Below, in pieces: positions 14,234 through 41,310 of a DNA stretch of 43,891 bases (position 1 is the first letter of the stretch; each line of letters begins with the position of its first letter). The position numbers were made by a program, and so were the translations under genes. The notes under the pieces were generated by a model, which did not search any database, had not been told where the DNA came from, and was given only the letters and a program-made list of their open reading frames with translations. Source of the stretch: Escherichia phage vB-Eco-KMB35; the sequence record OR525704.1. The stretch is one strand, 5' to 3'.

Positions 14234-14595
14234 AAGCGCTGTATGAATTTGCGCAATGGTGCTTTGTCGACCGCCACAAACGTAAGCAATTCGACGACAT
14301 CGCGGCGGGCCACCAGGCGGCTTTGATTGCAATGGGCGTGATTAAAGAACCGCAGATGAAAGAAGCGACGGGGCCGGAATGCCCCGTTTCTCTTATCGAC
14401 GTGTTCGAGAAATACCGTGCCATTAAATTCCTACAGCGCGAAACAGATGATACTATCGTTATAATCCCGCGCGATGCGCTCAAATGGCAAGATTTGGTAG
14501 CGTTTCGTGATGTCGCCGGTTACGGCATAAGTTTGTTCGAAGCCGAGGTTATCATGGGCTTAGACGGAATATTTGAGGGCAGAGAAGATGGCTGA
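14215..14595 (+). CDS. Tail assembly chaperone frameshift extension (GT-like), reached by -1 frameshift near GGAAAAG 14224..14230
   Basis: Frame-1 ORF open from 14215 to 14595, overlaps chaperone 3' end and ends at tape-measure start; slippery A-rich run. Confidence 0.45.
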   Translation, partial: ETLGKVKALYEFAQWCFVDRHKRKQFDDIAAGHQAALIAMGVIKEPQMKEATGPECPVSLIDVFEKYRAIKFLQRETDDTIVIIPRDALKWQDLVAFRDVAGYGISLFEAEVIMGLDGIFEGREDG

Positions 14596-16900
14596 TACGG
14601 CTTCCCTAATTGCCAGAGTAAAAACAGAAGGCGCTGATGTAGCCGCTAAACAGCTTGACGCTATGGCGGCATCCGCAGACCGTGCGGACACATCCGTAAA
14701 CAAACTAACGCCGGATGTTAATAAAGTAAACTCCGCTACGTCTAAAGCGGCTTCTGACGGTTTCGCTAAATTCCGTAACGCCGCCGGGCAGGTAGGCTTC
14801 CAGGTGCAGGACATGGTCGTCCAGTTGCAGTCCGGTACGTCAGCATTTGTGGCAATAGGCCAGCAAGGTTCGCAACTTGCGGGTGCTTTCGGCCCTGGTG
14901 GTGCTGTGCTTGGGGCCGTAATCGCACTAGCGTCGGCTGTTGGTGGAGTACTGTATAAATCACTAACCGAAGCAGAAGGCAGTTCAAAAGACCTCGAAGC
15001 CGCGCAGAAACAGTTAAAAGATACTTTCCAGCAAACGGCATCTGGCTCTCTCGAGCTGACAGACGGCCTTATCCAGCTTACCCAAATCAGCAGAGAAGCA
15101 GCGGAGACTCAGCTTGCTCTGGCTAAGGCTAACGCGGACCTTATCGCGCAGCAAACCGCTAAAGCTGTTCGTGAAGATGCCGAATCATGGGAAACGTGGA
15201 AAGCCTCCACGGCATCGGCGATTAGCCAGTATGATGCATTAGTCTCTAAGGGCGCAGATGTAGGCGACACATTAGAAAAACTCGGCGGCACTTACGAGGG
15301 CAACATCGTAGGCGTCAACATGCTGGCGCAGAATATCGCGGAGCTTAGCAGTAAGTTCGGAGTTAACCGTGACCAGGCGCTGGAGATGATAGCGGCGCAG
15401 AGTGCGTTTAACAAAGAGCCAACCGCCGAGAATGCCCGTCGCATCGCCGATGTGTTTACCGACTGGCTCGGTAACACAAAACAGTTGAACCCGGAACTTA
15501 TCCGCCTGACGGACAACGCCAACAAGAACGCCACGGCACTGGAGAACGCGGAGAAGTCAGCAAACGCGGCGGCAGAGGCCCAAAAGAATCTTGGTCGCAA
15601 CGTCAACTCAACCACGCAGAGATTCCAGGAACAGAACGAAGCTATCGTCAAAAACCAGCAAATCGCCATCTTAAGCGACCGTGAGCGTATCCGGGCGCAA
15701 GCTGAACTTGATAAACAGGCGTTCGCTAAACGTGAAGCCGTCACCAAAGAACAGATAGCCGCGTATAATGCGGCCCGCGACGCGGAAGCGCAGCAAGACA
15801 TCGCCCGCATTGACAAGACCGAGAAAGAGAAGGCCGACCGCGAGGCTAAATCGAACGAGGAACGTCTGGCGGCACAAGCCAAACGCGAAGAAACAGCGGC
15901 ACAACGTCAGAAAAAAGCGGCGGAAGATTTCCTGGCTACTGTCGACCGCACAACCGGAGACGAAATTTCACGTATCACAGCGGCAGAAGAACAGAAACTG
16001 GCGAAACTTGAAGAGTTCAACCGCGCCGGAACGATAAGCCAGCAGCAGTACGAAAACGCCAAAACTCAAATTATGCTCACCGCCGAGCAGGCCAGACAGG
16101 AAGAACTGGATAAGAAAAGAAAAGAGCAGCAGGAAAAGCAGCAGAAAGGCGACGACTTCATGGCCCAGATTATGGGTCAGAACGCCGCTGAGCTTGAGCT
16201 TCTCGACATCCAGGAACAGCAGAAACTGTCGGTAGCAGATAAGTACCGCGAGCAGGGTTTGATTAGTGAGAAGCAGTATCAGGCTGCGCTTAATGCCATC
16301 AACGAGCAGTACGCCACGAAGCGTGCCGACGCAACGGCAACGGCCTTCGGTAACATGGCCTCAAACATCGGTTCGGCTTTGGGCGAGGCTTCTGGCGCGT
16401 ACAAGGCATTCGCTATCGTGCAGGCCACTATAGCCACGTACACCGCGGCTATTGAGGCGTATAAGTCAACAGCGGCTATCCCTGTAGTTGGCCCGTTCCT
16501 GGCTCCTGTAGCTGCCGCTGCTGCCGTTGGGGCGGGTATGGCGCAGATTTCCGCTATCAGGTCCGCACGTGAACAGGGCGGACAGTTATCCGCGGGGCAG
16601 GCTTCAACCATCGCCGAACGCGGTAAACCAGAAGTTATCATGCCCGCTGGTGCGTCACGTGTACGCACCGCACAGCAGATGAAAGAAATTATGGGGCAAA
16701 ACGGGTCTTCTTCCGGACCGTCTAATGTTACTATCGTAAACAACACGAGTTCTCAAATCGGCAACGTATCCACTGAGCAAGATGATGAAGGCCGTTTGCG
16801 TATCATCATCGAGGAGCAAGTGGCTGCCTCTTTGCAGAACAGTAACAGTAAGATTAGCAAGGCCCGCAAGGCCACAAGAAATGCGCCGGGGTTTAAATAA
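14588..16900 (+). CDS. Tail tape measure protein
   Basis: About 770 aa, long Ala/Gln/Glu/Lys-rich helical protein after chaperone pair. Confidence 0.8.
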   Translation: MADTASLIARVKTEGADVAAKQLDAMAASADRADTSVNKLTPDVNKVNSATSKAASDGFAKFRNAAGQVGFQVQDMVVQLQSGTSAFVAIGQQGSQLAGAFGPGGAVLGAVIALASAVGGVLYKSLTEAEGSSKDLEAAQKQLKDTFQQTASGSLELTDGLIQLTQISREAAETQLALAKANADLIAQQTAKAVREDAESWETWKASTASAISQYDALVSKGADVGDTLEKLGGTYEGNIVGVNMLAQNIAELSSKFGVNRDQALEMIAAQSAFNKEPTAENARRIADVFTDWLGNTKQLNPELIRLTDNANKNATALENAEKSANAAAEAQKNLGRNVNSTTQRFQEQNEAIVKNQQIAILSDRERIRAQAELDKQAFAKREAVTKEQIAAYNAARDAEAQQDIARIDKTEKEKADREAKSNEERLAAQAKREETAAQRQKKAAEDFLATVDRTTGDEISRITAAEEQKLAKLEEFNRAGTISQQQYENAKTQIMLTAEQARQEELDKKRKEQQEKQQKGDDFMAQIMGQNAAELELLDIQEQQKLSVADKYREQGLISEKQYQAALNAINEQYATKRADATATAFGNMASNIGSALGEASGAYKAFAIVQATIATYTAAIEAYKSTAAIPVVGPFLAPVAAAAAVGAGMAQISAIRSAREQGGQLSAGQASTIAERGKPEVIMPAGASRVRTAQQMKEIMGQNGSSSGPSNVTIVNNTSSQIGNVSTEQDDEGRLRIIIEEQVAASLQNSNSKISKARKATRNAPGFK

Positions 16901-36202: not shown

Positions 36203-36493
36203 TTACCGTTTAGCCAACCCTTCCAGCAAATTTTTATACTCTTCAAAATATTCCTCGACCAAATCATCGCCGAAATAGAAGTCGATATACTCGAGATTAT
36301 CTCTTACGTTAAGCGATGCCGACATGGTGCTTAGTTGGCGTAAGCTAATTAGCTTCATTTCTGTTTCTACGCAGAAAGGCCGGTAGGTATCAAGATGGCA
36401 AGAGATATTGAAGCATAAAGCGAACTCTCCGGCCACGGAGTGAACCATATACACTTCGTTTTCTGCTTTATTGTGGAAAATTACGCCTTTCAT
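36203..36493 (-). CDS. Hypothetical protein (96 aa)
   Basis: ORF in replication operon, overlaps upstream gene stop. Confidence 0.45.
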   Translation of the reverse strand: MKGVIFHNKAENEVYMVHSVAGEFALCFNISCHLDTYRPFCVETEMKLISLRQLSTMSASLNVRDNLEYIDFYFGDDLVEEYFEEYKNLLEGLAKR

Positions 36494-39758: not shown

Positions 39759-40048
39759 GCCTTGCAACTGACATCCTGAAACGGAGCGGCCTTGCGCCGC
39801 TGTCGCCGAGAGCGAACACACGAATATACAAGCGCCGCCGTAATGCGCTGTACCCTGAGATTCAGGCCAGACGCAAAGCAGTCCGCGCCTGCGGATTCCA
39901 GAACGGAAAGGCCGTGAATCTCGGTGAGTTTAAAACAAAGGAACGTGCGGCTATCGCTAATCGGTTATTTAATTACTGGAAATCGCTGGGTTATGAAGAT
40001 ATTCCGACGAAACCACAGAGACGACAATACATCTGGCGTCATAAATAA
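39755..40048 (+). CDS. Small basic protein, possible AP2-like DNA-binding domain
   Basis: 97 aa; NGKAVNLGEFKTKERAAIANRLF resembles AP2/HNH-associated DNA-binding motif (weak). Confidence 0.35.
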   Translation: MSLATDILKRSGLAPLSPRANTRIYKRRRNALYPEIQARRKAVRACGFQNGKAVNLGEFKTKERAAIANRLFNYWKSLGYEDIPTKPQRRQYIWRHK

Positions 40049-40078
40049 ACCGTTATTAAGATAATTCCTAACCGTGCT

Positions 40079-40118
40079 ATCCTCCAGTTACTGCATACTT
40101 AATACGCACCTGGAGGAT
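40079..40118 (+). promoter_or_regulatory. RNA hairpin sequestering the holin Shine-Dalgarno (atcctccag ... ctggaggat)
   Basis: 9-bp perfect inverted repeat; 3' arm contains GGAGGA located 6 nt before TTG start at 40124. Confidence 0.4.
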
Positions 40119-40123
40119 TCATC

Positions 40124-40432
40124 TTGGATAAATTTACTGAAACAGTGACAGGCTGGCTTCTCGCTGCCGCACTAGCCGGAGGGGTAATCGGACTAAGGCA
40201 ACATAAGTCCGCTATTTCCGGCCCTATCGACGGCTTCTGCTTTATTGCAACTGGCTTCACTTGCGCCGTATTTGGCGCACCTCTCGCAGCTCAATGGTTT
40301 GGAATCACGGGCGACCGTGAAATCGCAGGCCTGGGCTTCATTATCGCTATTCTCTGGATGCCTATCTATTCCCGTCTGTCCGGTATCGTCGCCGGAGAAT
40401 ACATCGCACGTCGAGGAGGCCCGGATGAATGA
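40124..40432 (+). CDS. Holin (three predicted TM segments), TTG start
   Basis: 102 aa with three hydrophobic helices; immediately upstream of second TM protein and endolysin. Confidence 0.6.
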   Translation: MDKFTETVTGWLLAAALAGGVIGLRQHKSAISGPIDGFCFIATGFTCAVFGAPLAAQWFGITGDREIAGLGFIIAILWMPIYSRLSGIVAGEYIARRGGPDE

Positions 40433-40697
40433 GTTATTCTGGTTCTGCGGTATGCTGGCAATCGGAGGCACATCGCTGTTTAATGTGTATCATCCCAGCG
40501 TTGACGACGGGCTATTTGGCCGGGTGCTCTATATCCTGACTGCTATTGTCTGCGCCGCAGGATGTATCCACCTGTTACAGGGCAGCATGTCTCCGACGCT
40601 GCCTGAGACATTAATCACATTAGTTGCGCTGCGCCAGATTCGTCAGGCGTGGCTGTCATACGGAGGACATAAGCGTGTCTCGAAATATTTCAGATAA
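40425..40697 (+). CDS. Second holin-like / antiholin membrane protein (two TM segments)
   Basis: 90 aa from ATG 40425 overlapping holin stop (ATGAATGA); two hydrophobic helices. Confidence 0.5.
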   Translation: MNELFWFCGMLAIGGTSLFNVYHPSVDDGLFGRVLYILTAIVCAAGCIHLLQGSMSPTLPETLITLVALRQIRQAWLSYGGHKRVSKYFR

Positions 40698-41163
40698 TGG
40701 ATTGCATTTCACCGCTGCGTTCGAGGGATTCCGCGGAACTGCATACCGCGCTACGCCGAACGAGAAGTACCTGACTATCGGGTACGGGCACTATGGGCCG
40801 GACGTAACCCCGGGTAAGACCATCACACCGGGGCAAGGCCTCCTGTTACTGAATCGCGATATGGCTAAGGCCGTAGCTGCGGTTGATGTGGCGGCACACC
40901 ATTCGCTGACACAGGCACAGTTCGACGCTGTGTGCGACCTGGTCTATAACGCCGGTGCTGGTGTGATTGCAGCTGCTACCGGCACAGGAAAGGCGCTGCG
41001 TTCTGGTGACATCGCGACACTGCGGGCTAAACTGGCGCTGTTTATCAACCAGAACGGCAAACCGTTACTTGGTCTGCGCCGCCGTACTGCCGGGCGTCTT
41101 GCACTGTTTGACGGCAAGCCGTGGCAGGAGGCGGAGGCCATTGGGCGCGCGGTGAAAGGTTGA
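40675..41163 (+). CDS. Endolysin, T4 E-like lysozyme (glycoside hydrolase family 24-like)
   Basis: GTG 40675 with GGAGGA RBS; FEGFRGTAYRATPNEKYLTIGYGH matches T4 lysozyme EG-R--Y-D--G--TIG-GH catalytic region. Confidence 0.8.
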   Translation: MSRNISDNGLHFTAAFEGFRGTAYRATPNEKYLTIGYGHYGPDVTPGKTITPGQGLLLLNRDMAKAVAAVDVAAHHSLTQAQFDAVCDLVYNAGAGVIAAATGTGKALRSGDIATLRAKLALFINQNGKPLLGLRRRTAGRLALFDGKPWQEAEAIGRAVKG

Positions 41164-41229
41164 CACCTGAGACTAATCCGACGATACTTAAATCACCCCC
41201 TGTTCCATACCTCTGCTCTCCAGTTTTAT

Positions 41230-41260
41230 CCCGGCCCTGACCCAGCCGGGATTTTTTTTA
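41230..41260 (+). terminator. Intrinsic terminator cccggc-cctgaccca-gccggg followed by T8
   Basis: GC stem plus long T-run after endolysin. Confidence 0.7.
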
Positions 41261-41281: not shown

Positions 41282-41310
41282 TTGACTATTACCTACGACC
41301 CTATTATATT
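41282..41310 (+). promoter_or_regulatory. Promoter TTGACT-N17-TATATT
   Basis: Good -35 and -10 hexamers with 17-nt spacer directly after terminator. Confidence 0.5.

Follow-up and report, generated by a model that had tools for sequence, protein, structure and literature searches.

The holin gene of Escherichia phage vB-Eco-KMB35 (OR525704.1) has its Shine-Dalgarno (SD) sequence buried in the 3' arm of a conserved RNA hairpin, and the DNA encoding the 5' arm of that hairpin overlaps an extended -10-like promoter motif. We consider it an even call that this arrangement is of the T4 gene e type, in which RNA reading through from upstream genes would be locked and a promoter-initiated lysis mRNA would not include the 5' arm. 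The window analysed here is the whole stretch of 43,891 nt, and all positions refer to it unless another genome is named. An earlier note on this DNA had pointed out the hairpin and the weak TTG start codon; the main claim that we add to it, a promoter inside the hairpin, is put forward as an inference from sequence.

The lysis cassette and its surroundings

This region identifies KMB35 as a Kagunavirus, with 99.7% identity to Escherichia phage MarieHeimVoegtlin_Bas70 (PQ850619; hereafter Bas70) and matches to about 130 further Kagunavirus genomes. The genus belongs to the Guernseyvirinae, which are virulent siphoviruses. Three genes make up the lysis cassette, all on the plus strand: the holin gene (40124..40432, 102 aa, with its TTG start at 40124-40126), whose product belongs to PHROG 2359 (E = 1e-29 over residues 1-95); the gene for a second membrane protein (40425..40697, 90 aa, PHROG 2508 'holin'), the ATG of which overlaps the end of the holin gene; and the endolysin gene (40675..41163), which starts with GTG and encodes a Phage_lysozyme domain (PF00959). 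Pfam searches with the holin, the second membrane protein and an upstream 97-aa protein returned zero matches, and three transmembrane domains were predicted by the depositors of near-identical holin proteins.

A terminator-like hairpin followed by T8 (41230..41259, plus strand), read from the sequence, closes the cassette; it was missed by a simple terminator scan because its loop is 9 nt long. Two promoter matches occur around this end of the cassette. One, TTGACA-17-GATACT at 41160-41188, spans the end of the endolysin gene, and the other, a near-consensus TTGACT-17-TATATT at 41282-41310, lies 3' of the terminator and is the predicted driver of the next block of small genes. At the other end, upstream of the holin, 18 nt on the plus strand (aaa ccg tta tta aga taa, 40047..40064) represent a remnant of an HslV-like peptidase gene, namely of its 3' end, which in relatives reads ...aaa caa cta tta gga taa at the equivalent place. 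About half of the related phages have a complete HslV-like gene in the interval from the 97-aa gene to the holin, and it has been lost in the KMB35 lineage.

TTG is the start codon of the holin gene

The earlier note had stated that the holin gene has no in-frame ATG near its 5' end and that TTG 40124 is its best start, and both statements held. The holin reading frame opens after TAA 40100-40102, its first ATG, GTG or TTG codon is the TTG at 40124-40126, situated 6 nt past the final A of GGAGGA, and its sole in-frame ATG is codon 79. Only 3 of the 83 Bas70 genes start with TTG. The codon is nevertheless kept in all 80 Kagunavirus loci that we compared, and it is annotated as the start of the lysis gene in both Bas70 and fKuEco01; in the RefSeq record of Raoultella phage RP180, the start is annotated seven codons later, at the GTG equivalent to 40145. 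The holin family, collected by a HMMER scan of 1.84 billion representative proteins, is small. In its alignment the N-terminus MDKF of KMB35 falls at the same place as MNKY, MSKY and MDDKY in homologues, with Dhillonvirus holins opening ATG GAT AAG CTA (MDKL) and Jersey-like J2 holins ATG GAC GAT AAA (MDDK). Because these ATG-started homologues have a matching N-terminus at the homologous position, we take the TTG as the genuine start and uphold this call against the RP180 annotation.

A dual start at TTG 40124 and GTG 40145 was considered and rejected: the GTG (codon 8) is GTA in 2 of the 80 loci, the codon is absent in homologues, residues 2-7 of the KMB35 holin read DKFTET, and the ATG-started homologues are without a second start. 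Weak starts recur in the holin family, with TTG used in Kagunavirus, in a more distant relative (L048) and in Scapp, and GTG in Jersey J1 and LIET2. The TTG would attenuate holin initiation a second time, on top of the hairpin.

Three further observations concern start codons in related sequences. On a Tsm2-like IMG/VR contig (L135, 295-303) the holin ATG has changed to ATT, and an in-frame TTG one codon upstream, also present in relatives, may serve as the start. In Bas70, a 33-codon ORF with a TTG start (36258-36359, minus strand) has the most strongly paired SD region of the 83 genes (0.94), and may be another start locked by a hairpin, or else a questionable gene call. Also in Bas70, at 14379-15157, the annotation gives the second 'tail assembly chaperone' CDS a CTG start, 6 nt past the end of the first; this has the look of the usual programmed frameshift (G/GT type), with its two frames entered as separate genes.

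A stable hairpin sequesters the Shine-Dalgarno sequence

The 5' arm of the hairpin (AUCCUCCAG, 40079..40087) mimics an anti-Shine-Dalgarno sequence and is the perfect reverse complement of the 3' arm (CUGGAGGAU, 40110..40118), which holds the SD GGAGGA (40112-40117). The resulting 9 bp include 6 G-C pairs and enclose a loop of 22 nt (UUACUGCAUACUUAAUACGCAC, 40088..40109) that would provide the 5' leader of any promoter-initiated mRNA; all three elements lie on the plus strand. The coordinates that the earlier note had given for the arms, the SD and the TTG, as well as the 6-nt spacing, were exact throughout. A lower helix of 3 bp (40074-76 with 40120-22) extends the pairing close to the TTG.

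The isolated hairpin folds at -14.2 kcal/mol at 37 °C. A local fold of 61 nt reaches -16.7 kcal/mol, which 5 of 200 shuffles equalled (z = -2.65), and in a 171-nt context the overall z is only -0.38, yet the hairpin persists. In every context containing both arms the predicted pairing probability of the SD is at least 0.99, and the holin SD ranks third by pairing probability among the 83 annotated genes of the near-identical Bas70 genome. The window contains 10 perfect 9-bp inverted repeats with loops of 3-40 nt, compared with 7.4 ± 3.1 in first-order Markov simulations. A perfect repeat of this length is not above chance by itself; what is above chance is its placement on the SD, together with its conservation.

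Several other identities were examined for this structure and set aside. A permissive Rfam search of 39900-40300 matched no family; its sole hit, STnc500 on the minus strand, scored 13.7 bits against a gathering score of 44 and was taken as a sub-threshold chance hit. An RNA thermometer of the ROSE or fourU type was rejected in view of the perfect 9-bp helix with 6 G-C pairs, its -14.2 kcal/mol at 37 °C and the lack of an Rfam match. The KMB35 hairpin is not an intrinsic (Rho-independent) terminator either, because it combines a 22-nt loop with the absence of a U-tract (ggattcatcTTG); the terminator scan did not list it, and its tail reads TCATCTTGG.

We then computed the cost of opening positions -16 to +3 relative to the start codon, which amounts to 14.0 kcal/mol in read-through RNA versus 8.1 kcal/mol in RNA beginning at 40090. 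The relief in the shorter RNA is partial because the SD (GGAGG, 40112-40116) is still predicted to pair there, with CUUCU at 40157-40161 in holin codons 12-13. In most relatives, the computed relief on loss of the 5' arm ranges from 4 to 18 kcal/mol, and in L048 it is zero.

These values bear on the function that the earlier note had proposed, namely that a weak start codon and an occluded ribosome-binding site (RBS) together act as a brake on holin translation. The TTG and the hairpin are real. As a constant brake, the proposal implies that the functional lysis mRNA has both arms, with the hairpin and the TTG slowing holin synthesis and thereby setting the lysis time; the large A/U-rich loop would then act as a ribosome standby site. 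It agrees with the conservation of hairpin and TTG, with the recurrence of non-ATG starts in the holin family, with the failure of a simple scan to detect a strong intergenic promoter, and with an invariant single-stranded loop that could be a standby platform. However, for a lysis protein that is essential, an opening cost of about 10-14 kcal/mol seems excessive. By the hairpin-stability rule of de Smit and van Duin, such a cost would cut independent initiation by many orders of magnitude, and a constant brake on the only mRNA is disfavoured because a stem of this stability lies well outside the range that merely tunes initiation; at about 14 kcal/mol the stem is closer to a lock. Nor does a constant brake account for a -10 hexamer that is fixed at the 5' arm in all lineages, or for the conversion of the hairpin, in relatives, into a full terminator with a U-tract before the start codon. 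We regard this part of the proposal as possible, if rather unlikely.

The hairpin is conserved as RNA across Kagunavirus and beyond

Conservation was assessed in 80 Kagunavirus loci (64 haplotypes) drawn from IMG/VR, GenBank phages and metagenomes. Nucleotide diversity was 0.004 in each arm and likewise in the spacer with the start codon, and 0.02 in the loop, compared with 0.34 at third and 0.032 at second positions of holin codons, placing the arms 80-fold below neutral-like sites. Among the 64 haplotypes, a near-invariant block extends from approximately 40073 to 40147 and takes in the loop as well as the synonymous positions in codons 1-7; common polymorphisms in its vicinity are limited to 40059, 40071 and 40077. 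Rare variants within the element include A40086G in one locus (L042), giving a G.U pair in the stem, and T40111C in a single haplotype (L106), breaking one stem pair. In a locus of the Salmonella-phage type (L032), six loop bases are changed and the stem is lengthened to at least 13 bp.

L048, with a holin 67% identical to that of KMB35, retains the TTG and has an unrelated 15-nt loop and a different upstream spacer. Its 5' arm reads AUCCUCUGG, in which C->U and A->G changes produce U.G and G.U pairs with an unchanged 3' arm, and its lower helix (equivalents of 40074-76 with 40120-22) is likewise kept through one-sided changes. Because the L048 substitutions keep RNA pairing but not DNA symmetry, we conclude that the hairpin acts as RNA. 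Within Kagunavirus, stem covariation consists of one-sided (wobble) changes only and is too limited for a formal test, because 7 of the 9 pairs never vary. The suggestion in the earlier note of an SD-locking hairpin is thus borne out as a conserved, RNA-level feature, by the wobble pairs in L042 and L048 and by unrelated SD-bearing stems in other genera (see below).

The same data make it very improbable that the repeat is a DNA-level element, such as the operator of a dimeric repressor or a recombination boundary, or a chance repeat with no function. The number of 9-bp inverted repeats, taken alone, is within chance, and the block does form a mosaic junction in Salmonella phage VT223. Against this stand the C to T and A to G changes in the 5' arm, which preserve only RNA pairing and destroy the DNA symmetry, the classical short-loop hairpins of other lineages, some of them with U-tracts, and the 80-fold reduction in diversity. 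The VT223 case is an observation in its own right. This Jerseyvirus (L044, 1500-1760) carries the Kagunavirus element at ~95% identity, together with the first ~60 nt of a Kagunavirus holin. The holin remnant is a truncated ORF of 48 codons, the TG of the TGnTATCCT motif is CG in this copy and the last stem pair is broken; VT223's own holin, GTG-started and with a Jersey-type hairpin before it, comes next. In this phage the conserved block is a mosaic recombination junction, because the Kagunavirus piece lies ahead of the phage's own Jersey-type cassette.

The extent of the invariant block calls for separate consideration, since the invariance of the loop and of the synonymous sites in codons 1-7 is accounted for neither by a plain hairpin or a plain leader, nor by the lock or the brake model. 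One candidate explanation is regulated unlocking, in which a phage or host factor would bind the invariant loop or leader and open or stabilise the hairpin, in the manner of Mu Com-mom, coat-protein or RegA-type operators. In phage Mu, a stem-loop that the Com protein opens locks the start of mom, which is expressed late and is potentially toxic. The KMB35 holin resembles mom in having its start region locked in a stem-loop and differs from it in that no Com-like opener was identified. Such a factor would fit the conservation of the loop (diversity 0.02) and of codons 1-7, which is far higher than a plain hairpin or leader would need, and the different loop of the more distant L048. However, we found no candidate RNA-binding protein and no Rfam match, and the loops of the other genera are short and unrelated, so that this kind of unlocking appears improbable. 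We would give slightly more room, while still considering it unlikely, to the broader idea that the 75-nt block (40073-40147), which comprises the -10 hexamer, the two arms, the loop and codons 1-7, is a single regulated switch and not a passive lock, with exposure of the RBS controlled either in trans, by a factor from phage or host, or by a physiological signal. ppGpp could be such a signal, through its action on the G+C-rich discriminator to which the 5' arm gives rise.

A translated leader is another way in which the hairpin might be opened. A 24-codon ORF runs from GTG 40074 to TGA 40146-48, and ribosomes passing through the hairpin could melt it and couple holin initiation at TTG 40124 or GTG 40145. 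This ORF spans the invariant block almost exactly, its stop overlaps GTG 40145 as GTGA, and an ATG occupies the equivalent position of its start in L048 and Jersey J1. On the other hand, no SD precedes it, and it is cut by stops in L032 (TAA at the equivalent of 40107-09) and in RP180 (TCA to TAA, 40119-21). It reads GTG-ATA-TAG in Dhillonvirus, has a CTG codon in J2 and is missing in Tsm2-like phages; rare variants are without third-position bias, and GTG 40145 itself is replaced by GTA in the two loci mentioned above. We therefore see hardly any likelihood of coupling through this ORF.

A putative promoter overlaps the 5' arm

The extended -10-like motif TGcTATCCT (40075..40083, plus strand) has its hexamer at 40078-83, overlapping the 5' arm, and predicts a transcription start at about A40090. 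Both the TG and TATCCT are invariant in the 64 haplotypes, and the nucleotide between them (40077) is split approximately 50:50 between C and G. Two -35-like hexamers of KMB35, TTATTA (40053-58) and TTAAGA (40056-61), fall within the HslV-like remnant, and a position-weight scan picks TTAAGA with a 16-nt spacer. A simple sigma-70 scan found no promoter in the intergenic region because it demands a good -35.

In every lineage that has the hairpin, a -10-like TAnnnT hexamer adjoins or overlaps the 5' arm, in most cases behind a TGn; this placement recurs in 5-6 lineages. The motif is TGgTATCCT in L048, TGaTATAGT in Dhillon phages, TAATCT in Scapp, TATACT in Tsm2-like phages, and TGtTAATCT, TGaTAATCT or TGcTAACCT in Jersey phages. 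The 61-nt intergenic region of Tsm2-like phages consists of TTGCAG-18-TATACT, the hairpin and the start codon, with variable flanks on both sides. When the 120 nt upstream were scanned with the position-weight model, the hexamer site came out on top in 11 of 14 sequences, KMB35 among them, and the predicted +1 fell between -4 and +3 nt relative to where the 5' arm ends. The Kagunavirus match is weak, at 7-9 bits with a poor -35, and is equalled by 7-23% of shuffles (7% for KMB35). Moreover, five of the six hexamer bases are also under hairpin constraint, and the TG of the motif falls on a GTG or ATG codon in some lineages. The individual scores are modest; the evidence for a promoter comes from the repeated placement across lineages and not from the score.

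Two other motifs in this region were dismissed. GATAAT (40060-65) as an alternative -10 is GATACC in L048 and corresponds to the Gly/Arg-plus-stop of the HslV-like remnant. A 'GGATAAWTCC box' common to Kaguna and Jersey phages is likewise the C-terminal codon and stop of the upstream gene, and not a regulatory element.

The holin gene is located in a long rightward block of small co-directional genes, and no terminator-like sites were found between about 38166 and 40124. Read-through into the holin gene is plausible because the upstream genes are co-directional, without an intervening terminator, and a terminator follows only after the endolysin gene. Neither transcript maps nor holin translational control were found for these genera in the literature searched. 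From the sequence we infer an active promoter at the hexamer, its start site, read-through from upstream, and the resulting effects on translation and lysis time.

Put together, RNA reading in from the upstream small genes would form the hairpin, which would lock the holin RBS and so prevent premature holin synthesis. Transcription from the putative weak sigma-70 promoter of the extended -10 type (40075-83) would begin within the loop, at about 40090, giving a lysis mRNA without the 5' arm in which the SD would be much more accessible. This mRNA would cover all three genes of the cassette and end at the terminator (41230-59), and the TTG would keep initiation on it low. In Dhillon and Jersey J1 phages, the hairpin would also terminate the read-through RNA.

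The same layout occurs with unrelated stems in other phage genera

Where members of this holin family stand behind co-directional genes in small siphoviruses, a hairpin with the SD in its 3' arm is found just before the start codon, and the stems of the different genera are unrelated in sequence. Jersey J1 phages have CTCCGAAGG / CTTTCGGAG followed by a T-run and GTG, and Jersey J2 phages CTCCGTATGG / CCTATACGGAG with no T-run and an ATG, with one A-U to U-A compensatory pair relative to J1. The Dhillonvirus stem is GTCCCAGTGAG / CTTACTGGGAC, followed by T6 and ATG, and LM40P1 of this genus has an additional C-G base pair compared with Oekolampad. Scapp has GCCCC / GGGGC and a TTG start, and Tsm2-like phages show four different stems. 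The hairpins of Dhillonvirus and Jersey J1, which have a U-tract, qualify as intrinsic terminators; they occupy the same position as the KMB35 hairpin and, like it, hold the SD in the 3' arm.

No SD-locking hairpin was found at the RF1 holin homologue, where the upstream genes are divergent, or at the LIET2 homologue, which has a separate terminator and a TATAAT promoter. Searches for more distant relatives with P0019, P0020 and the Scapp holin against IMG/VR gave no matches.

Discussion

The closest parallel to the proposed arrangement is found in phage T4, where RBS hairpins of e, soc, 49 and I-TevI block translation of early read-through RNA, and late promoters within the hairpin DNA give translatable mRNA (McPheeters et al. 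1986, reviewed in PMC3014915). The KMB35 gene resembles T4 gene e in being a lysis gene whose SD is sequestered in a (here predicted) helix with an upstream 5' strand, in having a putative promoter element within the DNA of that 5' strand, so that the transcript would be without it, and in standing behind co-directional genes with no intervening terminator. It differs in that gene e encodes an endolysin and the KMB35 gene a holin with an added weak TTG start. KMB35 is furthermore a small siphovirus without T4-type late transcription, and its putative promoter is of the host sigma-70 extended -10 type, unlike the TATAAATA of T4.

A second point of reference is the lambda S gene, for which Blasi et al. 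(1989) and Chang et al. (1995) are said to have described an sdi stem-loop and a dual-start motif yielding the S107 antiholin and the S105 holin. As in lambda, where the stem-loop influences initiation and lysis timing, KMB35 has an RNA stem-loop at the site where translation of its holin is initiated. In contrast to lambda, where ribosomes are partitioned between two AUGs two codons apart, KMB35 has a single conserved TTG, and its stem is much more stable. The logic proposed here is therefore known from T4 and related to lambda sdi; what is added is its extension to holins in three genera of phages that are commonly isolated.

The timing of lysis determines burst size and fitness. Members of Kagunavirus, Jerseyvirus and Dhillonvirus are some of the most frequent isolates in work on E. 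coli and Salmonella therapy. In practical terms, the holin should be silenced when the cassette is cloned with its native leader, and the -10 hexamer, the stem and the start codon would offer three handles for engineering lysis time. If the block is a regulated switch, it would constitute a tunable lysis clock for virulent siphoviruses, conserved across Kagunavirus. If the T4-type model is true, the logic of a lock combined with an internal start would have evolved, or been retained, in small siphoviruses that use host sigma-70 promoters, and the same hairpin would be convertible into a terminator or a translational lock in different genera.
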